Shown here: positions 2,971 to 42,960 of the stretch, one piece after another
How the letters are laid out: the number at the start of each line of letters is the position of its first letter
Position numbering within the stretch: position 1 is the stretch's first letter
DNA from: a virus
Virus record (IMG/VR): IMGVR_UViG_3300033402_000312
Strand: one strand, 5' to 3'
Length of the DNA stretch: 64,000 nucleotides
The notes under the pieces: model-generated
What the model was told of the DNA's origin: nothing
The model's database searches: none
The model's input: the letters and a program-made list of their open reading frames with translations, nothing else
Position numbers and translations under genes: made by a program

Positions 2971-3385
2971 CCCAAGCCCGACGCCGTGGGATTTCGGAAC
3001 GTGGGGATTCTACTGCGATGCCTGCGAGAGATTCTTCGATTTGGTCGAGGACGGAAAAGTGCTGACCCACGAGGGCAACACTTGCACCCGTTACCACAGT
3101 TGCGGGGCAGAAGCCCGATACATCGGGTATGACCATTCAAGGACTCTTCGACCCGACGAACCGTGCAGCCACCCCGGCTGCCTGTCGCATGTGAGCCATC
3201 CATGCGAGGGCTGCGGTCGCATCGCCGGGCGGTATAAATACGAACCCTGCACCGGCTGCGCCGACCCGCACACATGGAGTCCACCCGACGAGGAGGGCAT
3301 CAACAAGGGCTACCATCATCGGCTGAGGAGTTTTCACGCTCCGGTTTCTCGCTGGATAAAATGTCTGCATTTTGACGAAAAATAG
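2957..3385 (+). CDS. Cys/His-rich hypothetical protein
   Basis: 142-aa ORF with many CxxC/HxC pairs; overlaps previous stop. Confidence 0.45.
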   Translation: MKPVDPSPTPWDFGTWGFYCDACERFFDLVEDGKVLTHEGNTCTRYHSCGAEARYIGYDHSRTLRPDEPCSHPGCLSHVSHPCEGCGRIAGRYKYEPCTGCADPHTWSPPDEEGINKGYHHRLRSFHAPVSRWIKCLHFDEK

Positions 3386-3388
3386 TTC

Positions 3389-3417
3389 TTGACAGTTTTC
3401 TGGCTACGCAGTATCAT
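3389..3417 (+). promoter_or_regulatory. sigma70-type promoter P1 (TTGACA-17-TATCAT) upstream of tRNA array 1
   Basis: TTGACA 3389-3394, 17-nt spacer, TATCAT 3412-3417; extended -35 region CTTGACAGTTTTCTG shared with promoter at 11099. Confidence 0.7.
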
Positions 3418-3432
3418 CTTAGAGAGTCAACC

Positions 3433-3507
3433 ATGAATCGCCTTGCCCTATCCCTGACCTTGTATAGCCTGCTTAGCGGGCTGCACGGCGGTGCGTTCAT
3501 CGGGTAA
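3433..3507 (+). CDS. putative leader peptide (24 aa, MNRLALSLTLYSLLSGLHGGAFIG) of tRNA array 1
   Basis: ATG ~16 nt downstream of the -10 element; 7 Leu codons using CUU, CUA, CUG, UUG; one UAU (Tyr); UCC/AGC (Ser). Codons match anticodons of downstream tRNAs. Confidence 0.45.
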   Translation: MNRLALSLTLYSLLSGLHGGAFIG

Positions 3508-3535
3508 GACGAGATTCAAGCCCGGATTCGAACAA

Positions 3536-3566
3536 GCCGCCGAGGTCAGGCGGCTTTCGTGTTTTA
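3536..3566 (+). terminator. terminator-like hairpin (candidate attenuator) between leader ORF and tRNA-Tyr
   Basis: GCCGCC-GAGGTCA-GGCGGC followed by TTTCGTGTTTTAT; leader codons 18-21 (ACGGCGGTG) can alternatively pair with the 5' arm. Confidence 0.5.
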
Positions 3567-3578
3567 TGGGCAAAAATC

Positions 3579-3666
3579 GGGGTAGATGGCACAATGGCGT
3601 GCCAGCAGACTGTAAATCTGCCGTCCCTTGCGGACACGGTAGGTCCGATCCCTACCTACCCCACCA
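3579..3666 (+). tRNA. tRNA-Tyr(GTA), class II
   Basis: Acceptor GGGGTAG/CTACCCC+A+CCA; anticodon arm GCAGA-CTGTAAA-TCTGC; long variable arm; T arm GTAGG-TCCGATC-CCTAC. Confidence 0.75.
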
Positions 3667-3684
3667 AGCTTTGGAGCATCAAAC

Positions 3685-3912
3685 ATGCAAGTGGTTCAGA
3701 CGCACCTGGTGAGGAAGACGGAGCACGGAGAAGTCCACACGATATGCTGGCTCGACGTAAAGCCGAACGTGAAGGTTGGCTCCGTGGTGTCCTTGGAAGA
3801 CTCGCCCGGCGAGTGGTGGACTGTGCTGTCCCAAGGCTTCGTGCAGGATTCCTCGCTGATCAACCGGAAATGGGGCCTAGACCTGCCGAAGTCGCAGCGC
3901 CTCGAAAGGTAA
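3685..3912 (+). CDS. hypothetical protein
   Basis: 75-aa ORF with balanced composition directly after tRNA-Tyr; preferred over ORF 3594..4169, which overlaps the tRNA. Confidence 0.4.
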   Translation: MQVVQTHLVRKTEHGEVHTICWLDVKPNVKVGSVVSLEDSPGEWWTVLSQGFVQDSSLINRKWGLDLPKSQRLER

Positions 3913-4170
3913 TCGAATCCGGCAGGGTCACGGAGTGCAGGCACTGCGGCACGAGGCACCCCACGTGGGCGAACGGCACGATTTGTTTCATGGCTTTCTT
4001 CTACATTTGGGAGCGCGACCTGCTCCACATGGCGAAGCAGGACGCAGGATGGAGGTCGGTGGCGCACAAGTTGGGGTTCATGGACGCTAAGATCGATGCG
4101 CCGTGGGCTTTCCCAGATGAAGGACGCTATATAGCGTACAGGCGGATAAAAGACGGTGAGTTTTTGTAAC

Positions 4171-4259
4171 GCGAGCGTGGCGGAATCGGCAGACGCGCAA
4201 CGTTGAGAACGTTGTGGGGTTTTTATCCCGTAGGAGTTCGAGTCTCCTCGTTCGCACCA
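4171..4259 (+). tRNA. tRNA-Leu(GAG), class II
   Basis: Acceptor GCGAGCG/CGTTCGC+A+CCA; D arm TGGCGGAATCGGCAGACGC; anticodon loop TTGAGAA; long variable arm; T loop GGAGTTCGAGTCTCC. Confidence 0.8.
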
Positions 4260-4335
4260 GATTTAAGTTGGGGCGGTGTTTGGCACGGATGCTTTATACA
4301 AGAGTAAACCCCGTGCCGTTGATGTCCCCCACTTT

Positions 4336-4422
4336 GCGCGGGTGGTGGAATTGGCAGACACGCGGGCCTCAGAAGCCCGTGGGGTAAAACCCGTGGAGGT
4401 TCAAATCCTCTTCCGCGCACCA
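4336..4422 (+). tRNA. tRNA-Leu(CAG), class II
   Basis: GCGCGGG...CCGCGC+A+CCA; anticodon arm CGGGC-CTCAGAA-GCCCG; variable arm hairpin; T loop GAGGTTCAAATCCTC. Confidence 0.8.
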
Positions 4423-4457
4423 AGATTCGGGCGGCTTCTGGGTCGCTCCCAGAAGTA

Positions 4458-4548
4458 GGAGATGTGGCGGAATTGGCAGACGCAGCGCCCTTGAACGGCT
4501 CTGAGTCTATTAAGACGGCTCGTGCGGGTTCGACTCCCGCCGTCTCCG
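4458..4548 (+). tRNA. tRNA-Ser(TGA), class II, Leu-type D arm, G73, no encoded CCA
   Basis: Acceptor GGAGATG/CGTCTCC+G; D arm identical to Leu genes (TGGCGGAATTGGCAGACGC); anticodon loop CTTGAAC with one C-T mismatch in the stem; long variable arm; T arm GCGGG-TTCGACT-CCCGC. Confidence 0.6.
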
Positions 4549-4571
4549 TCGCCCGGACGTATTAAGGTGAC

Positions 4572-4940
4572 ATGGCCAAGTTCGAAGATCATTGCCGCGA
4601 CTGCGAGCGCATCCTTGGGGGCAGGCGCGAGGATGTGAACCGCTGGATGGACGAGCTTTTTCGCCAGCATGGCCCAAGGCACCGCAAGTTTCGGCATTGC
4701 TGGCACGGCGTGTGCGAGGCAAGGAAGATTTTCGGAGCGGAGGGCGCGAAAGCGGCAATCATCCACATCGTTCGGGATTGCGGCGCTGTGCCCGACCAGC
4801 GCGTCTACGACGAAACGCAGCTTGGCATCGTGCTCGCGCCGGAGCATGCGACAGGCAGCGCGGACAACGCGGCGTTCGAAAAGTTTAGGATTGCCGTGGA
4901 AGAGGACTTTAAGAAAGCGGTTACGAAGGGGTGTTTGTAA
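4572..4940 (+). CDS. hypothetical protein
   Basis: 122-aa ORF between tRNA genes; protein-like composition; RBS-like AAGGTG upstream. Confidence 0.55.
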   Translation: MAKFEDHCRDCERILGGRREDVNRWMDELFRQHGPRHRKFRHCWHGVCEARKIFGAEGAKAAIIHIVRDCGAVPDQRVYDETQLGIVLAPEHATGSADNAAFEKFRIAVEEDFKKAVTKGCL

Positions 4941-5060
4941 GTGATCTGGAGAAAGATCAACGAATTTTGTTTTCGTCGTTATGGGACGCACCAGCAAGAC
5001 TGCTGGCCCATATACGCCCGGATAGTTTATGCGGTACTGACCTATCTGGTGTAGCAAAAT

Positions 5061-5147
5061 GCGGCTATGGCGGAACTGGCAGACGCACTAGCTTGAGGTG
5101 CTAGCGGTAGCGATACCGTGGAGGTTCGAGTCCTCTTAGCCGCACCA
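5061..5147 (+). tRNA. tRNA-Leu(GAG) second copy, class II
   Basis: GCGGCTA...TAGCCGC+A+CCA; anticodon arm CTAGC-TTGAGGT-GCTAG; T loop GAGGTTCGAGTCCTC. Confidence 0.75.
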
Positions 5148-5155
5148 AATTTGGG

Positions 5156-5228
5156 GGAATAGCATTGTGGAATGCGCCCCGGTTCCAAACCGGGGAGAAG
5201 GCGGTCCGACTCCGCTTCTATTTCGGCA
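5156..5228 (+). tRNA. tRNA-Trp(CCA)-like candidate, possibly degenerate
   Basis: Clean anticodon stem-loop CCCGG-TTCCAAA-CCGGG resembling E. coli tRNA-Trp; T arm GGCGG-TCCGACT-CCGCT; acceptor pairing imperfect. Confidence 0.3.
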
Positions 5229-5430
5229 GTTGCGTTGTTCCCGAGCTTGGCGTCCAAAAGCTGTCATGGAAAGACAGCCTGCCCGGCTTCGCGGTGAGCA
5301 GAGGGCGATACTTCCCCCACAAGTGAGGAAGCTCCGGCATGTTGCTGGTTCGACTCCAGCGCTGTAGCGAAGGGCAAGCCGTGTAGACGGCGCGATTCGC
5401 GGTCGAGACATGCCGACTTCCGCTAGATTT

Positions 5431-5515
5431 GCGACCGTGGCGGAACTGGCAGACGCGCATGGCTTAGAACCATGTGGAGCAGTCCGTGGGGGTTCGACTC
5501 CCTCCGGTCGCACCA
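5431..5515 (+). tRNA. tRNA-Leu(TAG), class II
   Basis: GCGACCG...CGGTCGC+A+CCA; anticodon arm CATGG-CTTAGAA-CCATG; T loop GGGGGTTCGACTCCCTC. Confidence 0.8.
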
Positions 5516-5520
5516 AGATT

Positions 5521-5606
5521 GCCGGGCTGGCGGAATTGGCAGACGCACTCGCCTCAAAAGCGAGCGGTTAACAGCCATGAGGGTTCGACTCCCTCGCCCG
5601 GTACCA
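5521..5606 (+). tRNA. tRNA-Leu(CAA), class II
   Basis: GCCGGGC...GCCCGGT+A+CCA; anticodon arm CTCGC-CTCAAAA-GCGAG; T loop GAGGGTTCGACTCCCTC. Confidence 0.8.
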
Positions 5607-10665: not shown

Positions 10666-11102
10666 AAGATATTTGGGTCTGTAAAATCGGCGAAACGGAA
10701 AGAGACAATCTTCCAGATGGGGCTGATTTTCCCATGAGGTTGGTTGTTGCCGAGGCTTATCGACAAATTACGGGACACGATCCAGATTTTTTCTGGTTGG
10801 GGCGGGGAATTGACCGAAGCCGAGCGAATTGTAGCAAACGAGAAGCGGGGAAAGCCATGAGCGACGTCGGCATGACGGAGTTCGAGAGGTTCGCCATGGA
10901 TCACAACGAGCATGCGCACTGCGCTGGGTGCGGGGGCTGCATGCTCGACCCGCGCATCAAGGAATTGCAGGCAGCCCCCGTTTGGTGTATGGGCTGCGTC
11001 AAGGCCATCCATGCCAAGATGCCTGTCGGTGCCCCGCGCCCGTGGGCAGGCGGGGTGATGTTCTGCAACCCCGGAAATTTCTTCTTGAAAATAACCTCTT
11101 GA
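10662..11102 (+). CDS. hypothetical protein
   Basis: 146-aa ORF, ATGA overlap with upstream ORF; Cys/His cluster HCAGCGGCM. Confidence 0.5.
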   Translation: MKDIWVCKIGETERDNLPDGADFPMRLVVAEAYRQITGHDPDFFWLGRGIDRSRANCSKREAGKAMSDVGMTEFERFAMDHNEHAHCAGCGGCMLDPRIKELQAAPVWCMGCVKAIHAKMPVGAPRPWAGGVMFCNPGNFFLKITS

Positions 11103-11127
11103 CAGTTTTCTGTTTTCCTGGTACTAT
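11099..11127 (+). promoter_or_regulatory. sigma70-type promoter P2 (TTGACA-17-TACTAT) upstream of tRNA array 2
   Basis: TTGACA 11099-11104, 17-nt spacer, TACTAT 11122-11127; same extended motif CTTGACAGTTTTCTG as P1. Confidence 0.7.
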
Positions 11128-11174
11128 ATGTGAGTACATGCGGCGGTCTTTGCCGCTATAGGTGCTGCCTTCAA

Positions 11175-11246
11175 ATGAACACGATGCGACCATTTCCGGG
11201 TTTTCGACCGTGCATGCCCAGCATGCGCGGGGTCGCAGGTCTCTGA
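11175..11246 (+). CDS. putative leader peptide (23 aa, MNTMRPFPGFRPCMPSMRGVAGL) of tRNA array 2
   Basis: 4 Pro codons (CCA, CCG, CCG, CCC) and 4 AUG matching downstream Pro(UGG), Pro(CGG) x2, Pro(GGG) and CAU tRNAs; 2 UUU; weak RBS. Confidence 0.4.
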   Translation: MNTMRPFPGFRPCMPSMRGVAGL

Positions 11247-11292
11247 CTGACGGAGACAGCCCCGCGCTGCACGGCGTCGGGGCTTTGTGGGC
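11226..11292 (+). terminator. alternative-hairpin region: CGCGGGG / AGCCCCGCG / CGGGGCT + TTTGTGGG (candidate attenuator)
   Basis: AGCCCCGCG (11258-11266) can pair either with upstream CGCGGGG (11226-11232, inside leader ORF) or with downstream CGGGGCT (11278-11284), which is followed by a T-rich tract. Confidence 0.4.
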
Positions 11293-11359
11293 TGTGAAAT
11301 TCCCAACAAAGAAGATGTTTTAGCCGCCCCCGACAGGTTGTGATGTGTTTGTGATGTGT

Positions 11360-11447
11360 CGGAGCGTAGGCGGGTAAATGGAAGCCCTCCTGCTTTGGAA
11401 GCAGGTGCCTGCGGGCCTTGGGAGTTCGAGTCTCCTCGCTCCGACCA
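11360..11447 (+). tRNA. class II-type tRNA with UGG anticodon and tRNA-Pro acceptor identity (C1:G72, A73)
   Basis: CGGAGCG...CGCTCCG+A+CCA; anticodon arm CCTGC-TTTGGAA-GCAGG; variable-arm hairpin GCC-TGCG-GGC; T arm GGAG-TTCGAGT-CTCC; 88 nt. Confidence 0.55.
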
Positions 11448-11472
11448 AGTTTCATTCGCGAATAGCGAATGT

Positions 11473-11551
11473 CAGGGCGTAGCTCAGTCTGGTTTAGAGT
11501 ACTCGCGTCGGAAGCGAGGGGTCGTGAGTTCGAATCTCACCGCCCTGACCA
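11473..11551 (+). tRNA. tRNA-Pro(CGG)-like (A37)
   Basis: CAGGGCG...CGCCCTG+A+CCA (C1:G72, A73); D arm GCTC-AGTCTGGTTTA-GAGT; anticodon arm CTCGC-GTCGGAA-GCGAG; T arm GTGAG-TTCGAAT-CTCAC. Confidence 0.65.
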
Positions 11552-11563
11552 GTATTATGATAA

Positions 11564-11902
11564 ATGATTGAATCAGAACGAGTTTTTCGTCGTGCCCGGC
11601 AACGAAAGTGGTATCGTGAACGTGGACGTGCCAAACAGATTAAGAAGGCAACCGCCCGAAAGAAGCGGATCATTGCTTGGTATCGAGCGTACAAAAGTAC
11701 GTTGAAATGCTCTCGGTGCTCGGAGAGGCGTTCAGCCGCCTTGGATCACCATCACCGGGACCCAAAAATGAAGGAGTTTAACATTGCCTTTGCTGTAGGG
11801 AATGGTTACTCCATTAAACGGTTGCTAAAAGAAATCGCGAAATGCGATGTCTTGTGCGCTAATTGCCACAGAGTTGAAGAGGCTGAAAGGCGCAAAGTTT
11901 AG
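11564..11902 (+). CDS. HNH homing endonuclease (inside tRNA array)
   Basis: HNH core LDHHHRDPKMKEFN...CDVLCANCHR; basic N-terminus; inserted between two tRNA-Pro genes. Confidence 0.75.
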   Translation: MIESERVFRRARQRKWYRERGRAKQIKKATARKKRIIAWYRAYKSTLKCSRCSERRSAALDHHHRDPKMKEFNIAFAVGNGYSIKRLLKEIAKCDVLCANCHRVEEAERRKV

Positions 11903-11907
11903 GTTTT

Positions 11908-11984
11908 CGGGTTGTAGCGCAGCCTGGTAGCGCGTACGCTTGGGGTGCGTAAGGTCGCGGGTCCGAATCCCGCCAACCCGACCA
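11908..11984 (+). tRNA. tRNA-Pro(GGG)
   Basis: CGGGTTG TAGCGCAGCCTGGTAGCGC...CAACCCG+A+CCA; anticodon arm TACGC-TTGGGGT-GCGTA; matches E. coli proL architecture. Confidence 0.8.
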
Positions 11985-12112
11985 AGTTCAGGCTGAAGTA
12001 GGTACATCGGTAACTACAGGCAGCCGAGAGACAGTCCGAGTCCCGCTGAGCGTCCCGCCGAGCCTACGCGCACCAATCGGTCAAGCGTACAGGGACGAGC
12101 AGCAGCGAGTTT

Positions 12113-12184
12113 TGCGGGGAAGTGAATAGGATCACGAGAGCCTCATAAGCTCTAAATCCGGTTCGAGTCCGGCGTCCGCAACCA
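12113..12184 (+). tRNA. tRNA-Met(CAT)-like, short D loop, imperfect T stem
   Basis: TGCGGGG...GTCCGCA+A+CCA; D arm GTGA-ATAGGA-TCAC; anticodon arm AGAGC-CTCATAA-GCTCT; T region CCGG-TTCGAGT-CCGG; 72 nt. Confidence 0.45.
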
Positions 12185-12333
12185 ATTTGAGGGCTAAATA
12201 TCGGTTGCCCGAGTGCGGAACATGGTTTCGAAAGTGTAAAAAGCAGATGCGCTTAGCCATGGCGGCTCCTAGTGCGTAAAGGGCGGACACGCCCGAGGCA
12301 AAACTGCCTCGCATACCGAAGAGCCACAATTTT

Positions 12334-12936
12334 ATGGAACAGTACCCAGAGATACCCGGCGCGAAGAAGGCTCCCCTCGGGGAGAGGTGCATCGCGTTCT
12401 ACAAGTACGACGGCTCCAACCTCCGGTGGGAATGGAGCAAGAAGCGCGGCTGGCACAAGTTCGGCACGCGGACGGAGCTTTTCGCCCCGGAGCACCCGCT
12501 GTGGGGGCAGGCACTCCCCCTTTGGCGCGGGATCGCGCACGACGTCAAGGATCGCATTTACGCGAGCGACTGGCGGTTCCGCAACATACAGCGGATCACG
12601 GCGTTCACCGAGTTCTTCGGGCCTTCGAGCTTCGCCGGGACGCATGACGAGAAGGAGCCGAAGGAGCTTAGGCTCATCGACGTCTGGCTGTACAAGCACG
12701 GCAGGATGCCGCCCCGGTGGTTCGTGGACACGTTCAGCGACGCGTCGTACGCGGCGCAGGTGGTCTACGAGGGCAACCTGAGCACGGAGTTCATCCGCGA
12801 CGTGCGGGCGGGGAAGTACCCGGTGTGGGAAGGCGTCGTGGCGAAGGGCGACGACTGGATGGCGAAGATCAAGACCGAGGCGTACATGCTGAAGCTCAAG
12901 GAGGTCTTCGGCCTGGACTGGGAAGGGTTCGCGTAA
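12334..12936 (+). CDS. minimal ATP-dependent RNA/DNA ligase-like nucleotidyltransferase (Rnl2-type NTase domain only)
   Basis: Motif I KYDGSN (K24), motif III FTEFFG, motif IV WEGVVAKGD, motif V AKIKTEAY; ~200 aa, no C-terminal domain. Confidence 0.65.
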   Translation: MEQYPEIPGAKKAPLGERCIAFYKYDGSNLRWEWSKKRGWHKFGTRTELFAPEHPLWGQALPLWRGIAHDVKDRIYASDWRFRNIQRITAFTEFFGPSSFAGTHDEKEPKELRLIDVWLYKHGRMPPRWFVDTFSDASYAAQVVYEGNLSTEFIRDVRAGKYPVWEGVVAKGDDWMAKIKTEAYMLKLKEVFGLDWEGFA

Positions 12937-12940
12937 TAAA

Positions 12941-13017
12941 CGGGGCGTAGCGCAGCCTGGTAGCGCGTCTGCTTCGGGAGCAGAAGGCCGTTGGTTCGAA
13001 TCCAATCGCCCCGACCA
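12941..13017 (+). tRNA. tRNA-Pro(CGG)
   Basis: CGGGGCG TAGCGCAGCCTGGTAGCGC...CGCCCCG+A+CCA; anticodon arm TCTGC-TTCGGGA-GCAGA, identical loop to E. coli proK. Confidence 0.85.
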
Positions 13018-13041
13018 ATATTATGCATAGCGAGGTGCATT

Positions 13042-13702
13042 ATGATTCTGGAAATAAGAGCGGCGGAAGGCGGCGAGGACGCGAGGCTCCTCGTCGAGGA
13101 CCAGACGACGATCTACGCCCGCGTGGCGTCGCGGAGGGGTCTTTGAGTTCGAGGTCGTGGAGCAGCGCCAGGGCTTCGCGGTCCTGAGGATCACGGGGCC
13201 GGGCGCGAAGGAGGCGTTCGCGAATGAGTCGGGAGGTCATCGCTGGCAGAGGGTCCCGCCGACTGAGAAGCGCGGCAGGGTGCAGACCTCGACGGTCACC
13301 GTCGCGGTGTTCGACGAACCCGAGGCTTCGGAGTTCAAGGTCAGAGACGCCGACCTCGCATGGGAGACCATGCGGAGCGGGGGCAAGGGCGGGCAGAACG
13401 TGAACAAGGTCGAGACTGCCGTCCGGCTGACCCACAGGCCGACCGGGCTGACAGTGCGGTGCGAGTCCGAGCGGTCGCAGTCGCGCAACAGGCAGACAGC
13501 GCTCGCCACCCTGACCGCCCGGCTGGCTGCGGCGCGGCGGGAGCAGCAGCAGGACGCGCAGGCGACCGACCGGAGGCGGCAGATCGGCACGGGGCAGCGC
13601 GGGGACAAGCGCCGGACGATCCGCGAAAGGGACGGGGTCGTGACAGACCACGTCCTGAACCGGAAATGGCGATACGCGGACTATGTGCGCGGGCTGTGGT
13701 AA
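13042..13702 (+). CDS. N-terminally truncated class I peptide-chain release factor homolog (domains 2-4) with programmed +1 frameshift at 13141-13146
   Basis: Frame 1: ATG 13042 (RBS GAGGTG), [34 protein letters not shown] then CTT TGA; frame 2 continues [13 protein letters not shown]...[28 protein letters not shown]...[38 protein letters not shown] (PxT-like PPT and GGQ motifs, RF1-like); GGAGG 3 nt upstream of CUU UGA as in prfB. Confidence 0.7.
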
Positions 13703-13712
13703 GATAGCTTAT

Positions 13713-13788
13713 GGCGGTGTAGCTCAGTTGGAGAGCGCGGGTCTCATAAACCCGAGGTCGCTGGTTCGTTCCCCAGCCACCGCTACCA
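13713..13788 (+). tRNA. tRNA with CAT anticodon (Met elongator or Ile2/lysidine type)
   Basis: GGCGGTG TAGCTCAGTTGGAGAGC...CACCGCT+A+CCA; anticodon arm CGGGT-CTCATAA-ACCCG; T arm GGTCGCTGGTTCGTTCCCCAGC resembles ileX. Confidence 0.75.
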
Positions 13789-13804
13789 AATTTGGGGAAG
13801 AAAT

Positions 13805-13966
13805 ATGTCTCATCCTGTAGTTTTTGATTGTCCACACTGTGGTCGGAGTTTAGAAGCATCATCAGAAACAGTAGTTCGCTGTCCACATTGTAGGGTAGCC
13901 ATCGATATTCTGACAGACGGAGTGAAGATAGACCCATTTGCAGAAAAATTTCATATTGGCGAGTGA
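13805..13966 (+). CDS. small zinc-ribbon protein (53 aa)
   Basis: ATG 13805; two CPHC pairs (FDCPHCGRS...VRCPHCRVA); start of an AT-rich island containing the next HNH gene. Confidence 0.4.
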   Translation: MSHPVVFDCPHCGRSLEASSETVVRCPHCRVAIDILTDGVKIDPFAEKFHIGE

Positions 13967-13999
13967 GGTCTAGTACTACAGTCAGTGTGACTAAGTTAC

Positions 14000-14548
14000 T
14001 TGACTTTCAAGAAGCATAAGTGGAGAATACCACTTATGCGACAAACAGTTTCAGTCACATGCAATTTTTGTGGCAATCAACTAGATAAACTTGCGAAGTC
14101 CGTAAAATGGGCGAGAGCTAACGGGCAAAAAAATTTTTACTGTAACATGGTCTGTATGCAGTCTGGCCGAACCTTAGGTCGGGTAAAACCGGGTACGGCT
14201 TTGCGTAGTCTTTTATGTCGGTATAAACAGACTGCAAGACGGAGAAAAGTTTCGTTTACGTTAACGGACACTGAATTTGGGAGCTTGGTTACCCAGTCAT
14301 GCTACTATTGCGGCGATGCTCCAGCACAAGTAGCAAGAGCCAAATCTGGCGAGACCTTAAAGTATAACGGGATAGACCGGGTTAATAACTTGTTCGGGTA
14401 TTCTACTGACAACAGCGTGAGTTGTTGCGGTACATGCAATCGTTGGAAATCATCCATGTCATCGGAGGATTTCTTGGCTCAAATCAGGAAAATTTTTGAG
14501 AGGACAACTATGGTCACCAACCTTAGCAAGACCGCCCATACGGCGTAA
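14000..14548 (+). CDS. HNH homing endonuclease
   Basis: CYYCGDAP...YNGIDRVNNLFGYSTDNSVSCCGTCNRWKS HNH core; N-terminal CxxC; low-GC island. Confidence 0.8.
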   Translation: MTFKKHKWRIPLMRQTVSVTCNFCGNQLDKLAKSVKWARANGQKNFYCNMVCMQSGRTLGRVKPGTALRSLLCRYKQTARRRKVSFTLTDTEFGSLVTQSCYYCGDAPAQVARAKSGETLKYNGIDRVNNLFGYSTDNSVSCCGTCNRWKSSMSSEDFLAQIRKIFERTTMVTNLSKTAHTA

Positions 14549-14577
14549 CGTGTGGGCCGGTCACAAGGAGAACCAAA

Positions 14578-15240
14578 ATGTTGTCAAGGACTAAAAAGGC
14601 GGCTGCGCTGTACTTCGAGCCGCTCAAGAAACTGCTGGCTGCTGTGCGGTCGGTGGTGCAGTTCCGTGTGAAGCGCTGGCATGTCGCCATGCGCGGGTGG
14701 AATGAGAAAGACGTTCGCGTCCTGATCTGCCTTGAAGACTCGATCTGGTACTGGGTCGTGTTGGAGTGGCTGTTCTGGGACGTCCAGACGCATGTCTGCC
14801 ACTGCATGGACTGCGTCAAGCTCCCGAAGTTCGTCCGCAACTGGAAGCGGCACTGGGACAAGGACGATCCCGAGTACTTCGCCACGTGGGAGGACTGGTA
14901 CGGCGACAGCTTTCACTCGATCTGGCACTGCCATGTGTGCGATCCCTTGCTTCAGTGGGTGTGGAGGCACAAGGATTTCCACAAGGCGTGGCCGCAGTGG
15001 GAACTGACGTTCGACGAAGCCCGCAAGACCTTCGCGCACGACCCGAAAATCTACGAGTGGGCTGAGAAGGAACTTGCGGAGCACAAGCAGTACGACGCCG
15101 AGAAGCTCGACGAGATTCGCAAGTCCTACAAGGCTGGCGGCCTGACCCGCGAGCAGGCGCTTGAAAAGCTGGGGTGGCACTTCGGGGGCGAGAATCTTGA
15201 AATTCTGCTTGACGAAAAAGAAGGACTAACAGTATCTTAA
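14578..15240 (+). CDS. hypothetical Trp/His/Cys-rich protein
   Basis: RBS AAGGAG 8 nt upstream; 220-aa ORF. Confidence 0.6.
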   Translation: MLSRTKKAAALYFEPLKKLLAAVRSVVQFRVKRWHVAMRGWNEKDVRVLICLEDSIWYWVVLEWLFWDVQTHVCHCMDCVKLPKFVRNWKRHWDKDDPEYFATWEDWYGDSFHSIWHCHVCDPLLQWVWRHKDFHKAWPQWELTFDEARKTFAHDPKIYEWAEKELAEHKQYDAEKLDEIRKSYKAGGLTREQALEKLGWHFGGENLEILLDEKEGLTVS

Positions 15241-15485
15241 TAGATGCACGTGGGACCCCGACCGACCTGACGAGGCAGCTTGTACGAGAGGTGGCGGGCA
15301 GTGCGCATCAACCTGGCACCGAGGCTCATAACGACTGAACAGCCGGAGCCGATGACAACGGGGTCCCACAACTTTTTCAGTCCCAGCCCTGCCTGACTGG
15401 GTGGTTGCGGGGGAGATGTTCCAGCCCATACGATGACTGGATGGCGGGGACGCAATGTTTGGCGGAGACGACTAAATTTTTCTGA

Positions 15486-15562
15486 TGCGGGGTGGAGCAG
15501 TCTGGTAGCTCGCAACGCTCATAACGTTGAGGTCGCCGGTTCAAATCCGGCCCCCGCTTCCA
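15486..15562 (+). tRNA. initiator-like tRNA-Met(CAT)
   Basis: Body nearly identical to E. coli tRNA-fMet (TGGAGCAGTCTGGTAGCTC, GGTCGCCGGTTCAAATCCGGCCCCCGC); unpaired 1:72 (T/T); CCA encoded; anticodon stem CAACG/CGTTG lacks the three G:C pairs. Confidence 0.75.
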
Positions 15563-15578
15563 GTTTATAGCCCGAGGG

Positions 15579-15818
15579 GTGGAACCTGAGACGGCAATTC
15601 CGCCCCTCCATTCTTTGAAAGGGCGCATGGGACAGACTTCGTCAAGCTCCAAAACGACAGCCACCGAACTGGCGAAGATGCTGATGGAGCACCCCGACTG
15701 GGAAGTCGAGGTCGAGGGTTACGCTTGGTTCGGGATGAACGAGCCTACGAAGTATACGTCGTCGCCCGAAGTGGACGAACTGCCCGAGCAGAAAAAGTTT
15801 CTCATCTACACAGTCTGA
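15579..15818 (+). CDS. hypothetical small protein (start may be 15627)
   Basis: 79-aa ORF directly after tRNA; acidic C-terminal half. Confidence 0.35.
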   Translation: MEPETAIPPLHSLKGRMGQTSSSSKTTATELAKMLMEHPDWEVEVEGYAWFGMNEPTKYTSSPEVDELPEQKKFLIYTV

Positions 15819-16090
15819 GTTCAACGCCCGTAGGCTTTGAGCCGAGATGCAGAAGGGCTGGCAGAGCCATACGACCTGATGCAGGACGGGAAAGCTCTGC
15901 AAGTAATTTGTGAAGAGATTCTGCAAATGAGGCGGCATCTCATTTGCAGGGGAGCCGGAGCAAATGCGCGAGGACATGCCTCACCAGCGCGTTCAGACGG
16001 ACACCGGACCGGGTGAAAGCCGTGGCAAGACTGTTTGAGTCTCCGGCGCAAGCTTCGCAGCGGTGTAATGTACGGATACTTCACATAAAC

Positions 16091-16119
16091 CAGTAGGTTG
16101 TGGGTTCGAATCCCACCTT
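16091..16119 (+). tRNA. tRNA 3' fragment (variable loop + T arm + acceptor 3' strand)
   Basis: GGTTGTGGGTTCGAATCCCACCTTCCGAG has perfect T arm GTGGG-TTCGAAT-CCCAC but no matching 5' half upstream. Confidence 0.4.
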
Positions 16120-16669
16120 CCGAGAAATCGGATGTAGCTCAACTGGAAGAGCAACAGGTCAGAAAAATTCCGTGCAGCTTTTTGTTCCCTGCGATTTCAA
16201 GACTGATTTTTTCGTGCCGAGCCGCCCGTGCGTGGCCACGCTAAGGCGCGGGAGAATCCATAAGGTGGCTGTTGTACAGGCCCGCTCGTACGAAGGGCGA
16301 TCTTTCTAGCTAGAGGTTCGTACGAGCGAATACATTTCGGTGCTTCAAGCCGTTCTCGGACGTAAACCGAGTGGAGCGGAACCTCGCACGTTTCCCGGTT
16401 CGTCAAAAACCGGGTGGATTTCTATGACGAAAGCGACCGCGTGCAGCCTCGTTGCTTATGCCTCGGCGTTCGCTGCTGGCGCGACTTTCTGGTACGGAAC
16501 CTTGGCGTCGAAGCCCAAGTTCTATTATCTCGCGGTAGCGTTCTTCTTGTTTGCCGCGAAGTTCCGTTTTCTGGCTTCCGCGCATCTAAAAGGAAAGATT
16601 CAATGAAGCTGACGTCCCAACTCGACTCGTTTAGCGGCCCCTCCGGGGGCCTGCGGTAACGTGTGTCAA

Positions 16670-16745
16670 GGGGACGTAGCTGATGCGGTCTTAGCGCCTG
16701 CCTGAAGAGCAGGAGATGTTGGTTCGACTCCGACCGTCCCCGCCA
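16670..16745 (+). tRNA. tRNA-Phe(GAA)
   Basis: GGGGACG...CGTCCCC+G+CCA; anticodon arm CCTGC-CTGAAGA-GCAGG; T arm GTTGG-TTCGACT-CCGAC. Confidence 0.8.
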
Positions 16746-16786: not shown

Positions 16787-19700
16787 ATGGACGAACTTAC
16801 CCCGCAGCAAGAGCAGCCAGCCAAGAAGACGCGAAAGCCCAGAGCGCCTAAGGCCGAGAAGCCGAAGAAGGAAAAGCCTGCCCGCGACATCCGAAGTGTG
16901 TTCCGCGAAAAGCTGGCAAGCATCACCGTCGAGGGCATCAAGAAGCCTTGGATGTCCGAGAAGGTGTTCCGCCTCATCACGACGGCAGAGGAGCTTGAAG
17001 CTTGGGTAGACAGCATCCTGGCCGACGCGTCCCGGCACCACGCATGGGCGGGCATCACCTGTCCCGTCATTGCGGTTGACACCGAGACGACCAGCCTCGA
17101 CACGCGCATCTTCACCGACATCAAGCAGGACGGGAACGGCAATTGGTATCTGGTCTACGAGGTCAAGACCGAGATCGCCGGGGTCTGCCTCTCCGCTGAC
17201 GGCATCGAAGGACTTTACATCCCGATCAACCACGAGAGGGGCGTGAACGTTCCCCGCGCCGACGCGGCGCGGATTCTCCAGAGGCTCTTCGACCGATCTC
17301 ACCTGGTCTTCTACAACGGCAAATTCGACCGCGAGGTCATGAAGATCACGCTGGGCATAAGCTTCCGTGGCTACCCGCACTTCGAGGACGTGCAGGTCTT
17401 GAACTACATCAACGACCCGAAGGCCGATTTCGGCGACAAGGCGAGCTTCCAAGGCGGTGCCGAGGGGCTGAAGAAGCTTTCCGAGAGGGTGCTGGGCATC
17501 GAGCAGATCGAGATCGACGAGATCGCGAAAGTCCGCTGCCAAGTCTGGAACCCCGTCACGCAGAAGAACACGCTGAAGCAGAAAGTCGTCCCGTTCACCT
17601 GGGTTCCCCCTGACATCGCGCTGTGGTACGCGGCGGCGGACGCGATCTGCACGTGGCTCCTGTGGGACCGCATGAAGGGGCTTGCCCGCAGCCGGAAGCT
17701 CGTCCACCGCATCGACCACGAGCTTGTCGATTCGCTCGCGTACGTCGAGCGCCAGCGCTTCCTCGTGGACGTTGACCGCCAGCGCCGCACCGCCCGCTGG
17801 CACGGGCGCACGCTCGCGGCGCTGAAGGACAAGCTCTCGAAGCTCGCTGAGGCGGCGGGCTGGACGCAGGAATTCAACCCCGGCTCGACGAAGCAGCTTG
17901 GCGAGCTTCTGTTCAAGGTCATGGGCTTCAAGCCGTACCGCACGACCGATGGCGGCGCGGCGTCCACCGACAAGGAGACCCTGACGGAGCTTGCGAAAGA
18001 TCACCCGGACAACGAGTTCATCGTTGCCCTGAAGGATTTCCGCGAGCTTGCGGCGCTTCACCCGGACAACCTGCGCTACGATCCGAAAGACAACTCCGCG
18101 AGGATATACCTCAAGCAGAACGTCGTCGCCGGGGGACGCCTATCCGGGGGCGGCGGGGAGTTCGAGAAGGACGGCGGGTTGGAATGGAACCCGCAGGGCG
18201 TCAAGAAGCTGGAGAAGGAGGACTTCTGGCGCGTGTACGGCAACGTGCTGGAGCCGGACTCCGTGCCGGAGTATGAGGTTGAGGAGCACGACGAGAGCGA
18301 GCTTCACCCGTCCTGCTTTGTCGAGGAGAAGGGCGTCAAGACTAAGGCCCCCGGCATCATCAAGAACCATATCGGTCTCTACCAAGACTACGCGATCTGC
18401 CTTGTGCCGGGCTGCAAGACCTGCAAGGACAAGTTCGGAATCCTGATCGAGGACACGTCGCTCGACGCGAACCAAGTTATCAACCTGCGCGTGCTCATGA
18501 CCGCGCCTCCGGGATGGACGTTCTTCAGCATCGACTACTCGAACATCGAGATGCGTGCGATGGCCAACCTGTCCGGCGAGCCGAAGTATGTCCAGGAGTT
18601 CCTGACGGGAAGCGGCGACTTCCACGACCTGACCGCGAAGAACATCTTCCCGCAGTACAGCGACCCGACGTCGAAGGACTACAAGTCCAAGACCTTGCGC
18701 GGCATCGCCAAGATCATCAACTTCGCCATCAACTACGGCGGCACGGCGCACGCCATCTACAGGAACCTCATCAAGAAAGACCCGACCATGACCATGAAAA
18801 AGGCGGAGGAGCTTGTCGAGAAGTACTGGGCGGGCGTGCCGAAGTTCAAGGAGTGGTGCGACGTCAAGCAGGCGCGGGCACGCAACGATTTCGTCACCGA
18901 AACAGCGACTGGGCGCGTGCTCGACTTCAAGTCGGCGATGGAGCAGGAGCACATCCGCGTGCCAACTTCCCAGGAGAAGGCGCTCCTGAGAAAGTACTAC
19001 GACTACAAGCGCGAAGCCAAGGCTGCGCTGGAGCGGGGCGACGAGGACGTTGCCGCATCGTACAAGAACGCGGCGGACAGGCTGTGGAAGAACCCGGAAA
19101 CGGGCGTCCGCAACGCCATTGAGTACAACCAGTTCATCAGCAAGGCGCAGCGCGTCGCAGTCAACACCCCGGTGCAGGGGCTGTGCGGCGACTTCATGCG
19201 CATCTCGATCAACCGCATCAAGAAGTGGGTCGAGAAGGACCCGGACGTCCAAAAAGTGTTCCGCTTCCACTGCTCCGTCCACGACGAGATCGACGTGTCG
19301 ATCAAGAACGAGTATGTGCCGTTCGTCCTGCCGCGCCTCACGCGCTGGATGAAGCTGCGCAAGTACCACGAGAGCATGCAGTGGCCTGTTCCCATCGAAT
19401 GCGACGCAGAGTACGGTCGTAGCTGGGACGTGGACTGGAGCATCAACAAGGTGGGATACACGTACATCGACGGCCTTGAGACCTACGCGCCGGATGCGTT
19501 CAGCACGACCACGGTCAACAACCTGTACAAATTCATTGCCTCCGGCGACGAGGAGAAACGCGAGAAGGCGAAGGGCTACCTCCAGAACGTCCTCCACCCC
19601 CGCGCTTTCGAATCCGCGAAACTTCTGTTCAAGGCGCAGGACAGGAAGGAAATCCAGCAGCAGCTTGTCGCCGTGCTCCAGCTTCACGAGTACTGGACTA

Positions 19701-19987
19701 TCGACCATGTGCCGGACGGCGACGAGAACGACAAGACCCTTGAGACGCTCGCGCAGTACGAGCAGCGCGTGGGCATCAGCGCACGCGACCCGCTCTGCCC
19801 GGAGTTCGGTTACATGGGGCCGATCCCGCTCGACAACCCGAACGTGATCCGCCCGGAGCCTAACCTGCTCGAAGGCGGTGAGGTTACGCCCACGGAAACC
19901 TCGGAACCGGAAACAGAAGAAACTTTTGAGGTTGAAGACCCCCCGCAGACCTCTCAGGAATTCCTGACGCATAAAGTAGGAGCTTAG
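16787..19987 (+). CDS. polA: DNA polymerase, family A (3'-5' exonuclease + polymerase)
   Basis: Exo motifs DTETTSLD, YNGKFD, YAAADA; Pol motif A IDYSNIEMRAMANL, motif B RGIAKIINFAINYGG, motif C SVHDEIDV; 1066 aa with insertions. Confidence 0.95.
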   Translation: MDELTPQQEQPAKKTRKPRAPKAEKPKKEKPARDIRSVFREKLASITVEGIKKPWMSEKVFRLITTAEELEAWVDSILADASRHHAWAGITCPVIAVDTETTSLDTRIFTDIKQDGNGNWYLVYEVKTEIAGVCLSADGIEGLYIPINHERGVNVPRADAARILQRLFDRSHLVFYNGKFDREVMKITLGISFRGYPHFEDVQVLNYINDPKADFGDKASFQGGAEGLKKLSERVLGIEQIEIDEIAKVRCQVWNPVTQKNTLKQKVVPFTWVPPDIALWYAAADAICTWLLWDRMKGLARSRKLVHRIDHELVDSLAYVERQRFLVDVDRQRRTARWHGRTLAALKDKLSKLAEAAGWTQEFNPGSTKQLGELLFKVMGFKPYRTTDGGAASTDKETLTELAKDHPDNEFIVALKDFRELAALHPDNLRYDPKDNSARIYLKQNVVAGGRLSGGGGEFEKDGGLEWNPQGVKKLEKEDFWRVYGNVLEPDSVPEYEVEEHDESELHPSCFVEEKGVKTKAPGIIKNHIGLYQDYAICLVPGCKTCKDKFGILIEDTSLDANQVINLRVLMTAPPGWTFFSIDYSNIEMRAMANLSGEPKYVQEFLTGSGDFHDLTAKNIFPQYSDPTSKDYKSKTLRGIAKIINFAINYGGTAHAIYRNLIKKDPTMTMKKAEELVEKYWAGVPKFKEWCDVKQARARNDFVTETATGRVLDFKSAMEQEHIRVPTSQEKALLRKYYDYKREAKAALERGDEDVAASYKNAADRLWKNPETGVRNAIEYNQFISKAQRVAVNTPVQGLCGDFMRISINRIKKWVEKDPDVQKVFRFHCSVHDEIDVSIKNEYVPFVLPRLTRWMKLRKYHESMQWPVPIECDAEYGRSWDVDWSINKVGYTYIDGLETYAPDAFSTTTVNNLYKFIASGDEEKREKAKGYLQNVLHPRAFESAKLLFKAQDRKEIQQQLVAVLQLHEYWTIDHVPDGDENDKTLETLAQYEQRVGISARDPLCPEFGYMGPIPLDNPNVIRPEPNLLEGGEVTPTETSEPETEETFEVEDPPQTSQEFLTHKVGA

Positions 19988-39778: not shown

Positions 39779-40060
39779 ATGCCTGACCTGCGCTCAATCG
39801 CGAACCAGTACCACCGCGCCGCCAACCGGATAGCCGCCCGCGCAGACCGCGTCGGTGAACTGACCGAGAACCAGCGCCGCGCCATCGAGTCGTTCCGCGA
39901 CTGCGCGGCCAAGGTCGAGGCGCTCATTCGCCCCGAGGATTCACTCCCGAAGGATGCCATAATTACGACAAACATTATTGAAAACCTTACTCCCCAGAAA
40001 AAAGTCAAGACCCGCGACAAAGCGGCAACCCCACAGGAGCTTTTGGAGAAAGCACAATGA
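39779..40060 (+). CDS. hypothetical protein
   Basis: 93-aa ORF. Confidence 0.4.
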   Translation: MPDLRSIANQYHRAANRIAARADRVGELTENQRRAIESFRDCAAKVEALIRPEDSLPKDAIITTNIIENLTPQKKVKTRDKAATPQELLEKAQ

Positions 40061-42385: not shown

Positions 42386-42820
42386 ATGCCGCAGCTTGAG
42401 GTAGCGACAATCGTGATGAAGGATGCGGTCAACGTCCTGATCGGGAAGCAGAAGGACGGCCCGGACGCCGGGAAATGGGTGATTCCCAGCGGCCTCATCC
42501 GGGAGGGCGAGCGCATGATCGAAACGTGCGAGCGCGTGTCCATCGAGGAGACGGGAATCGTGGTGAAGCCCAAGCAAGTCCTTTTCCTGTCCGAGGTGCT
42601 CAAGCCGGAGCACCGCACGGCGGTGTTCTGCTTTGCCGACTACGTGAGCGGCGAGCCTTCGCCCGGCGCGTCCCTGACCGAGGTCAAGTTCGTAGACCCG
42701 AGAACCCTCGGCGACTACCAGAAGGAAGGCATGGCGGAGCTTACGGAGGATGCCTTCTTCAAGTTCAGCATGGTCCTCAGAGGGCAAGCGGCGGCGTCCC
42801 CAACATCCGGCATAGTTTAA
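42386..42820 (+). CDS. Nudix hydrolase
   Basis: Nudix box GKWVIPSGLIREGERMIETCERVSIEETGI (G-x5-E-x7-REUxEExGU). Confidence 0.75.
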   Translation: MPQLEVATIVMKDAVNVLIGKQKDGPDAGKWVIPSGLIREGERMIETCERVSIEETGIVVKPKQVLFLSEVLKPEHRTAVFCFADYVSGEPSPGASLTEVKFVDPRTLGDYQKEGMAELTEDAFFKFSMVLRGQAAASPTSGIV

Positions 42821-42960
42821 TTGGAAACTGAGTATTAGGTGTTATCGCGTTCCACCTTTCCTTGCTGCAAGATTTGTCAGAGAGCAAAGATGGCGATGCC
42901 TTATTCTGAGTTTGTATCCTATCTTCATCGGGTTAAGGACTTTGCGGGGATTCCTGCCTT

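Follow-up and report, generated by a model that had tools for sequence, protein, structure and literature searches.

In a 64,000-nt stretch of viral DNA (IMG/VR record IMGVR_UViG_3300033402_000312; 'the window' below means this whole stretch), an array of Pro, Met and Phe transfer RNA (tRNA) genes is preceded by a short leader that, on balance, seems to be a ribosome-mediated (leader-peptide) attenuator, one that would set expression of the array through the decoding of codons in a 23-codon open reading frame (ORF). This reading is carried by the codon content of the ORF, which is enriched in codons whose decoding reports on the regulated tRNAs, and by the RNA around its stop codon, which can form three mutually exclusive helices, one strand of which lies within reach of a translating ribosome. 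The window appears to be a segment of a jumbo phage, as judged from its two tRNA arrays and from comparison of its family A DNA polymerase (gene at 16787-19987), which shares 42% identity with the polymerase of the cultured acidobacterial jumbo phage Tunturi_5 and 55-88% identity with polymerases on IMG/VR contigs of up to 456 kb. Both arrays were found with ARAGORN on the + strand, as are all the leader features described here. The second array (11360-16745), presumed to be the controlled unit, consists of tRNAs with small ORFs in between, in the order Pro(UGG) (starting at 11360), Pro(CGG) (11473), Pro(GGG) (11908), CAU (12113), Pro(CGG) (12941), CAU (13713), CAU (15486) and Phe(GAA) (16670), and it ends just upstream of the polymerase gene.

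The leader ORF occupies 11175-11246 (23 codons plus TGA at 11244-11246, encoding MNTMRPFPGFRPCMPSMRGVAGL*), and 9 of its 22 post-start codons are read by tRNAs of the second array, compared with 10.7% of codons in the long ORFs of the window (binomial P = 2.5 × 10−4). None of the window's other ATG ORFs of 15-40 codons (221 in all) has as high a cognate fraction, and Pro, Met and Phe together make up 36% of residues across the family of homologous leaders. Several of the codons used are minority codons, with CGA, CCA and TTT accounting for 7%, 12% and 15% of their respective codon families in the window's long ORFs. The preliminary description of this DNA had spelled out the same ORF, which is present as written, and had matched its Pro codons to UGG, CGG and GGG tRNAs and its UUU codons to Phe(GAA), tRNA genes that are all confirmed; the match that it drew between AUG codons and three CAU tRNAs, genes that are present and could be of the elongator Met, initiator or Ile2 class, stands by anticodon only.

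Homologous leaders occur on related jumbo-phage contigs (labelled L116-L171 where they need to be told apart; L198-L200 denote other phages). Six independent contigs reached via the polymerase gene have the same array upstream of the polymerase and a homologous leader before the array, and a scan of IMG/VR, JGI/ENA metagenomes and one genome per bacterial species with the core pattern ATGCGACCA-N9-TTYCGACCGT yielded 21 distinct true homologues, the chance matches being without such an ATG ORF. The ATG, the frame and a length of 22-25 codons are kept in all 21 distinct leaders, with length differences that amount to whole codons (that is, indels in frame) and a consensus peptide of the form M-x-x-M-R-P-x-x-x-F-R-P-[C/Y]-...-R/H-G-...-stop. 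Invariant in the homologue alignment are the codons ATG-CGA-CCA (11184-11192 in the window) and TTT-CGA-CCG-TGC (11202-11213); the 3' third of the ORF is shaped by RNA pairing, with C-terminal residues that vary as the stems covary. In every homologue with enough downstream sequence, tRNA-Pro(UGG) and Pro(CGG) start 104-203 nt past the ATG and are followed by Pro/Met/Phe genes, and the relatives share the same Pro/Met/Phe array, syntenic with the polymerase gene. In one relative (L170) an inserted ORF separates the leader from the first tRNA. Pattern matches in bacterial genomes were coding-region coincidences in 10 of 10 cases, such that no host origin was seen at that stringency, and DNA-level similarity between the window and GenBank phages was limited to tRNA-length matches. 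Flanking genes were of no use as anchors: a 142-amino-acid protein upstream of the first promoter led to loci without tRNAs, and an AAA ATPase led to nothing.

Around the stop codon, the leader RNA contains four strands that pair in three mutually exclusive ways. Region 1 (11225-11232, GCGCGGGG, within ORF codons 17-20) is the 5' strand of helix 1:2, the apical part of which is an inner hairpin (11239-11257, GTCTC-TGACTGACG-GAGAC) with the stop TGA in its loop. Region 2 (11260-11267, CCCCGCGC) pairs with region 1 or with region 3 (11274-11282, GCG-T-CGGGG, then CTTTGTGGG), which serves helix 2:3 as its 3' strand, T11277 being bulged, and helix 3:4 as its 5' strand. The helix 3:4 element (11276-11334) runs from GTCGGGGC through an inner hairpin with the conserved loop GTGAAATTCCCAAC to CCCCCGAC (region 4, 11327-11334), and a G/U-rich spacer (11335-11359) separates region 4 from the first tRNA; in relatives this spacer is present but not directly 3' of the stem. 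The alternative pairing put forward in the preliminary description, GCGCGGGG:CCCCGCGC or CCCCGCGC:GCGuCGGGG, is thus possible in both forms, and the covariance analysis across relatives that it had proposed revealed compensatory changes in 1:2, 2:3 and 3:4, the last involving a fourth strand that it had overlooked, together with the probably tRNA-derived nature of helix 3:4 described below.

Support for each helix comes from the alignment of homologues. Helix 1:2 is paired in 100% of 168 alignment cells, with compensatory change at 4 of 8 pairs; together with the inner stop hairpin it has a score that 0 of 500 shuffles reach (slid controls were 35-64% paired), and RNAalifold recovers it independently. 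In 20 of 20 folded leaders the apical loop contains the stop codon or borders on it, though stem sequences differ between clades. Helix 2:3 is 90.5% paired despite five misaligned rows, with seven G-C to U-A exchanges. Region 3 also pairs with CCCCGAC ~50 nt downstream (region 4), and the resulting helix 3:4 is paired in 96.7% of cells (15 distinct long-form leaders) versus 37-52% for slid registers, shows compensations at 4 of 8 pairs and belongs to the minimum free energy (MFE) structure in each leader; the bulge nucleotide of 2:3 covaries with the base that it pairs with in 3:4 (U-A, C-G, A-U). Regions 1, 2 and 3 also change together, from G/C/G to A/U/A in L147 and from GGGG/CCCC/GGGG to GGGA/UCCC/GGGA in L127, L168 and L171. 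Per-sequence folds give -20 to -31 kcal/mol for 1:2 (~-28 kcal/mol for the hairpin of the window), -12 to -19 kcal/mol for 2:3 and -11 to -22 kcal/mol for 3:4, an order of energies that implies a resting fold of 1:2 plus 3:4, with 2:3 expected to form only when region 1 is unavailable. The spacing relative to the ORF is also constrained: region 1 begins 8 nt past the last Pro codon in all 20 leaders and 14-20 nt past codon 12, and region 2 starts 12-19 nt downstream of the stop codon in the family as a whole (16 nt in the window). Other candidate pairings were set aside: one between the ORF start and the G/U-rich spacer is in the MFE structure of the window but in most relatives is no better than with shuffled tails, and UGCGACC:GGUCGCA and CCGUGCA:2:3-loop pairings were seen, by eye, in some clades only and are not conserved structure.

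The strands of helix 3:4 resemble part of a tRNA. In three relatives (L124, L125 and L127) the leader is ~70 nt shorter and region 3 is the 5' acceptor strand of the first real tRNA-Pro(UGG), from which it follows that strand 4 in these relatives is the 3' acceptor strand of that tRNA. In the long forms, including the window, an 8-bp acceptor-like stem is followed by A-C, in the positions of A73 and C74 (a full ACCA in L158), and the UGUAAGU after region 3 resembles tRNA positions 6-12 (UGUAAAU). Neither ARAGORN nor the Rfam tRNA model called a tRNA at 11276-11334. We infer from these likenesses that the helix 3:4 element is a decayed tRNA-Pro that keeps its acceptor stem, the array's first gene having apparently been the material for the switch. 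Such a tRNA-derived pair of strands would show how a switch of this kind can evolve from the first gene of an array.

Upstream of the ORF, a sigma70-type promoter (11086-11127) combines the A/T-rich GAAAATAA, a -35 hexamer TTGACA (11099-11104), a 17-nt spacer and a TGn-extended -10 hexamer TACTAT (11122-11127), with 10 of 12 consensus matches for 11099-11127 in a promoter scan; the stop codon of the upstream gene (TGA, 11100-11102) falls within the -35 hexamer. Only two near-full sigma70 sites are found in the first 20 kb, at 3389-3417 (11/12) and 11099-11127, one just 5' of each array, and a 16-mer, TCTTGACAGTTTTCTG, is identical at 3387-3402 and 11097-11112 (chance expectation ~0.47, even at 3 mismatches), so that both the TTGACA-17-TACTAT promoter and the motif that it was said to share with the promoter of the first array are confirmed. 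The pattern GAAAATAA-N-TTGACA has a single match in the window at ≤2 mismatches. An A/T-rich GAAAA(A)TAA adjoins the -35 hexamer at 11086-11098, at 3376-3388 and in the corresponding promoters of relatives, and could be an UP element or a phage-specific promoter signature. Relatives have a promoter at the equivalent position; the exact promoter motif is absent from all polymerase-linked relatives, and one clade instead has GATTTTCCTA...TGGTAKTAT promoters without a recognisable -35 hexamer. A scan of IMG/VR with the 16-nt motif returned 115 matches, essentially all by chance, and a third copy in the window (TCTTGACTTTTTTCTG, 39995-40010, - strand), with two mismatches, a poor -10 hexamer and no tRNA downstream, is probably unrelated.

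Transcription is predicted to start at ~11134, followed by a 5' untranslated region that contains a hairpin (GCGGC-GGTCTTT-GCCGC, 11140-11156) and a Shine–Dalgarno (SD)-like AGGTG (11160-11164), 10 nt 5' of the ATG. Most relatives share this layout, with a promoter ~45 nt 5' of the ATG, a 5'-proximal hairpin of which the structure is kept and the sequence is not, and a purine-rich GGAG, AGGT or GAGG 9-13 nt 5' of the ATG. A different geometry is found in L164, L166, L168 and L171, where a TGn-extended -10 box lies only 6 nt before the ATG (9 nt in L147), which suggests a leaderless messenger RNA with AUG as its 5' end.

The leader before the Pro/Met/Phe array has counterparts elsewhere. The first array of the window (3579-5606, + strand; Tyr, Leu, Leu, Ser, Leu, Trp, Leu, Leu) is preceded by a promoter (TTGACA-17-TATCAT) and then a Leu/Tyr/Ser-rich leader ORF (3433-3507), in which 8 of 23 codons are cognate to the Tyr/Leu/Ser/Trp array versus a background of 15.6% (P = 0.019). 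Homologues of this leader are present in four lineages (MNRLALSLTLYSLLSG..., MNRVSLSLSLLYSLLSG..., MTHVTLSPSLRLYSLYLSY... and MTRLTLSSLRLYSYLSG...), with conserved codons CUA-UCA, CUG-UAU-AGC and CUU-AGC; the ORF, the conserved codons and the terminator are all kept in L156, L157 and L161. A canonical terminator with a U-tract lies at 3534-3556 (AAGCCGCC-loop-GGCGGCUUUU...), its 5' arm can pair with GGCGGUGUGUUC (GGCGGUGYGUUC) near the end of the ORF, and the whole folds as a four-strand attenuator. When codons read by the own array and by the other array are compared for the two leaders of the window, the counts are 9/1 vs 1/8 (Fisher P = 0.0011).

Similar arrangements are present in the distantly related Tunturi_5, which has 43 tRNA genes and is in culture together with its host, Tunturiibacter psychrotolerans (PMC11924767). 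The neighbourhood of the Tunturi_5 polymerase gene is without a tRNA array; the arrays are instead located at 231-256 kb. Three of them are preceded by leader ORFs, in PP885688.1 209001-259000 (L198) at 22156-22314, 30171-30475 and 42573-42836, of which only the third is annotated (gp308, hypothetical protein). For each leader we counted the residues belonging to the amino acids of its array (binomial P values): 16 of 31 (P = 7 × 10−5) in the leader MKTLCLSSYCLSSSLSLSDGW... (MKTLCLSSYCLSSSLSLS...) of array A (Leu, Cys, Leu, Leu, Tyr, Leu, Ser, Ser, Ser), including 15 codons in a row from the four amino acids of the array; 23 of 36 (P = 3 × 10−3) in the leader ...MQHVSTFRFAVPATAGNPAGQQGTNACDTGGG... 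(MQHVSTFRFAVPATAGNPAGQQGT...) of array B (Gln x2, Gly, Thr x3, Pro, His, Ala x3, Phe); and 29 of 48 (P = 2 × 10−5) in gp308, MKQILKQLGHDFDIRGKRGVVVDTWDITIRGERKWSDVRDMRVLRERPV, before array D (Trp, Asp, Met x2, Lys x2, Val x2, Arg x4, Glu x2). Each is followed by a canonical terminator, the 5' arm of which can pair with the 3' part of the ORF. In a 5 × 5 matrix of leaders by arrays, the true pairing ranks first of 120 permutations; with the rank of 1 in 221 among small ORFs and the Fisher test for the two leaders of the window, this bears out the earlier proposal that the mirroring of tRNA content by leader codons exceeds chance. Beyond these phages, the unrelated Xanthomonas phage Xoo-sp13 (MN047793.1, L199) has at ~2330-2441 a TTGACA-17-TAAATA site and an ORF, MNKLYYKRYYKKLP, with 4 Lys and 4 Tyr in 13 codons, directly 5' of tRNA-Lys(CUU), Lys(UUU) and Tyr(GUA), and in the Stenotrophomonas phage Moby (L200) the tRNAs come directly after a gene, without a leader, indicating that the architecture is not universal.

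From these features we infer translation of the ORF, the sites of ribosome stalling, the sign of regulation and transcription termination as its output, in the following scheme. The promoter would give a ~226-nt leader transcript with a 5' hairpin, a weakly spaced SD sequence and the 23-codon ORF. At rest, with no ribosome on the 3' part of the ORF, region 1 would pair with region 2, placing the stop codon in the loop, and region 3 would pair with region 4. A ribosome traversing the ORF would melt region 1 and, once parked on the stop codon, would leave region 2 free to capture region 3 upon its transcription, and the resulting 2:3 hairpin (followed by CUUUGUG in the window phage) would halt or abort transcription or keep the first (pseudo)tRNA from folding, switching the array off. 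A ribosome delayed at AUG-CGA-CCA or UUU-CGA-CCG would stay at least 14 nt upstream of region 1, such that helices 1:2 and 3:4 would form and RNA polymerase would enter the array. Because CCA, CCG, CCY, AUG and UUY would be read by the downstream UGG, CGG, GGG, CAU and GAA tRNAs, that is, by the array's own products, the array would be made when these are limiting and shut off when they are sufficient. As a speculation, CGA may sensitise the Pro codon that follows it; decoding of CGA goes through an inosine-adenosine wobble, and in yeast few codon pairs are as inhibitory as CGA-CCG. We favour the polarity with 1:2 (plus 3:4) permissive and 2:3 restrictive because a ribosome on the stop codon would cover region 1 and not region 2, so that translation, if completed, must give 2:3, because a ribosome stalled at the invariant codons (4-13) would leave region 1 free, because a sensor needs an OFF state under translation and only this polarity gives one, and because in the sister leaders a strand that can pair with the 5' arm of the terminator likewise lies near the end of the ORF.

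Several observations weigh against this scheme, the most direct of which concern its output. A terminator scanner flagged nothing in 11128-11359, the tail after helix 2:3 (CUUUGUGGG) is under the threshold of the scanner and is not conserved in relatives, and in every tail after 2:3 or 3:4 the U count stays below 5 per 8 nt (4 for the 2:3 tail CUUUGUGG). On a rough d'Aubenton-Carafa-type score, 2:3 plus its tail in the window (-24) is close to the Tyr/Leu terminator of the window (-23, the weakest bona fide one), and outside the window's clade the 2:3 tail scores -30 to -55; in L124, L125 and L127 the hairpin is directly followed by the tRNA body. As a terminator, 3:4 scores -30 to -78, worse than 2:3, except in four relatives with AUUUUGU. 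The effector step at the Pro/Met/Phe leader is therefore unproven, and of the antiterminator/terminator alternative in the preliminary description the alternation stands, in that the helices covary, whereas the terminator half is a possibility only, its tail being weak and not conserved; canonical intrinsic terminators are present at the sister leaders (the Tyr/Leu leader of the window and those of Tunturi_5). Helix 3:4 is conserved yet superfluous to a three-strand model. As to the ORF, the invariant Arg-CGA codons (x2), the Cys/Tyr codon 13 and the frequent Thr have no cognate tRNA in the array, and start signals are weak, with a long SD spacing (9-13 nt) and, in the 'leaderless' clade (L164), no full promoter found by a simple promoter scanner. 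The search pattern behind most homologues fixes codons 4-6 and 10-12, and only the six polymerase-linked sequences show these codons free of that bias; the five codons free of the search pattern have entropies of 0.96, 0.93 and 1.10 by codon position, with no marked third-position excess, so that translation is argued from start, frame, length and indels rather than from substitution pattern.

These points bear differently on the alternatives. The strands could be wired in the polarity of trp-type four-strand attenuators, with 3:4 as terminator, 2:3 as antiterminator and 1:2 as anti-antiterminator: a stall at the last Pro/Met codons (14-17) would mask region 1 and give 2:3 and read-through, and no translation or an early stall would give 1:2 plus 3:4 and termination. 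All four strands and three helices are conserved and covary, as such a device would have it, the last Pro codon is exactly 8 nt 5' of region 1 in 20 of 20 leaders, so that a ribosome there would cover region 1, helix 3:4 is directly followed by AUUUUGU in L117, L162, L164 and L166, and the Tyr/Leu leader of the window folds in just this four-strand manner. We nonetheless regard this polarity as unlikely, since 3:4 closes an insert of 45-60 nt and has a far poorer terminator score (-30 to -78) than 2:3, 3-8 nt separate the stem from the U-rich stretch in most clades, and in L124, L125 and L127 helix 3:4 is a real tRNA acceptor stem without a terminator. A ribosome at the stop codon would, moreover, free region 2, such that completed translation would also read through and no OFF state under translation would exist, and the invariant codons 4-13 lie beyond the zone from which a ribosome could mask region 1. 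The tRNA-derived nature of these strands suggests a further possibility, in which the choice between 2:3 and 3:4 decides whether the acceptor stem of the first tRNA-Pro, or of its remnant, forms, and hence whether RNase P cuts off the leader, with altered maturation or stability of the array transcript as the outcome. That the first tRNA-Pro of three contigs has region 3 as its 5' acceptor strand, that the long-form 3:4 is acceptor-like with A-C after it (ACCA in L158) and with UGUAAGU like tRNA positions 6-12, and that no conserved canonical terminator was found all fit such processing or folding control. It would seem improbable all the same: the more stable 1:2 plus 3:4 should re-form after the ribosome departs, making the OFF state transient, each downstream tRNA can be excised independently of the leader, and the sister leaders in the same phages have ordinary terminators.

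The remaining alternatives question what the ORF is for. The Arg and Cys residues without an array tRNA in the conserved core would be accounted for if the nascent peptide M-R-P...F-R-P-C stalled the ribosome from within the exit tunnel, in answer to general translation stress, a small molecule or host defence, with the likeness of codons to tRNAs secondary; motifs of the Arg-x-Pro type, in which Pro occupies the A site, are characteristic of arrest peptides, among them SecM (RAGP) and the RAPP peptides. We hold such an arrest sensor to be quite unlikely, because conservation is at the codon level (CGA, CCA and CCG are invariant, with the qualification that most sequences were retrieved by a pattern fixing these codons), because only 12-13 conserved residues from codon 1 are short for tunnel sensing, and because it does not predict unrelated leaders that mirror their own arrays. 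At the other extreme, the ORF might be incidental to an untranslated, structured 5' leader of a tRNA precursor, or might be the gene of a trans-acting micropeptide, to which the shaping of its 3' third by pairing, the lack of a marked third-position excess at the five pattern-free codons and the weak SD sequence would be agreeable. This we find highly improbable, given that the 5' 40 nt of the ORF are the most conserved, yet without a conserved pairing partner, that all 21 leaders retain the ATG, the frame and the stop position, with indels in frame only, that the ATG is at the predicted +1 in four relatives and that composition matches the array at several unrelated leaders; a trans-acting peptide would, in addition, have no need for a stop codon in a loop, for region 1 within the ORF or for a region 2 that pairs with a tRNA-derived region 3. 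Attenuation by a leader peptide, with 1:2 permissive and 2:3 restrictive, remains the reading that we prefer.

On that reading, the Pro/Met/Phe leader probably exemplifies a broader principle of large phages, as yet undescribed. A joint reading, which we consider as apt to be wrong as right, is that jumbo phages sort tRNA genes into arrays by amino acid, with each array measuring itself via its own leader and the Pro leader built from the first tRNA-Pro; that the rare CGA-CCR pairs are sensitised stall sites; and that tRNA genes would here be seen under leader-peptide attenuation for the first time. Phage tRNA genes are usually seen as constitutive patches for codon usage or as replacements for destroyed host tRNAs, and, to our knowledge, essentially nothing is known of the control of their expression. 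Attenuation at these arrays, if true, would be direct product feedback on tRNA supply with the ribosome as the sensor, and a general, unrecognised phage layer over host translation that could, for example, answer host tRNA depletion or cleavage. The idea would explain why tRNA genes are sorted into arrays by amino acid and why small 'hypothetical' ORFs such as Tunturi_5 gp308 precede arrays, and the culture of Tunturi_5 with Tunturiibacter psychrotolerans makes the question directly testable. The elements are compact (150-250 nt) and could serve in synthetic biology as sensors of decoding capacity for chosen codons.

The array itself has several unusual members. Its first tRNA, Pro(UGG) (11360-11447), has 88 nt, an enlarged D region and a variable arm of 13-15 nt, and scores 24.5 bits against the Rfam tRNA model, under the gathering score; the leader-proximal Pro(UGG) and Pro(CGG) (11473-11551 for CGG in the window) are equally long in relatives (87-92 nt), where the Pro tRNAs further into the array are of normal length (L116-L171). 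The CAU tRNA at 12113-12184 (72 nt; 37 bits) has an odd D arm, and that at 15486-15562 is initiator-like, with a U1:U72 mismatch and a UUCCA end. Among the several small ORFs that break up the array, one at 13157-13702 (+ strand) combines an RF-1 (GGQ) domain (Pfam E = 4.5 × 10−32) with the terminal part of a PCRF domain (E = 4.6 × 10−11) and is a short phage protein resembling a release factor or ribosome-rescue factor. Another, at 11564-11902 (+ strand) between Pro(CGG) and Pro(GGG), has by eye a CxxC...HHH...CxxCH arrangement that suggests an HNH-type homing endonuclease; it had no Pfam match at E < 0.01.

As to precedent, we found no report of leader-peptide attenuation of tRNA genes, in phage or cell, in the full-text literature, with few subscription journals covered, and the paper on the Tunturi phages (PMC11924767) makes no mention of leader-peptide attenuation. 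Among known regulators that gauge tRNAs, the T-box is like the phage leader in aim, in that a leader in cis gauges a specific tRNA through a choice between antiterminator and terminator, but it binds uncharged tRNA directly and without translation, whereas the phage leader has a conserved ORF instead. No Rfam family, T-box and other riboswitches included, matched the leader at gathering thresholds, nor at E ≤ 10 in a search of 11050-11600, and a riboswitch of these kinds is accordingly rejected. For codon decoding as the sensing step and for a leaderless start, as in L164, L166, L168 and L171, the nearest likeness is to the leaderless polycysteine short ORFs of mycobacteria, which are Cys-responsive attenuators (bioRxiv 10.1101/834739). 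Those act on translation or stability of Cys-metabolism genes, and unlike the phage leader they have no tRNA targets and no tRNA-derived helix.

Proline codons as such have a parallel in the Salmonella leaders. In mgtL (upstream of mgtA), a very short ORF with few Pro codons ties the progress of the ribosome to charged tRNA-Pro. In mgtP (mgtCBR), a short leader ORF with Pro codons is likewise combined with alternative stem-loops (PMC3641672). These leaders are like that of the phage in their Pro codons, in alternative stem-loops that decide elongation and in having no classical codon run, and unlike it in serving Mg2+ transport and virulence genes, in being partly Rho-dependent and in having no link to tRNA. 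In its presumed working the phage leader is like the attenuators of amino-acid operons (trpL, hisL, leuL, thrL, pheL and ilv, in Proteobacteria and Actinobacteria), which have the same short 5' ORF rich in control codons, the same exclusive helices, with one strand contained in the ORF and strands 1 and 2 flanking the stop codon, and the same selection of the fold by the position of the ribosome, and the canonical terminators of which are shared by the sister leaders (3433-3556 in the window, and Tunturi_5). In the phage, by contrast, the targets are tRNA genes, the operon's own products are sensed, several amino acids are involved and the system is viral; in the Pro leader, furthermore, the control codons are two rare pairs (CGA-CCA and CGA-CCG) plus AUG and UUU rather than a run, the acceptor stem of a tRNA-Pro, or its remnant, supplies strands 3 and 4, and there is no conserved canonical U-tract. 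Control codons that correspond to the amino acid handled by the regulated translation-apparatus gene are known from the pheM leader of E. coli pheST, a leader-peptide attenuator which differs from the phage leader in regulating a synthetase protein gene, in being bacterial, in sensing one amino acid and in having a canonical terminator. Ribosome-mediated attenuation has been known for sixty years, and the leader described here would be a known kind of regulator on a new class of target, with a self-referential logic.

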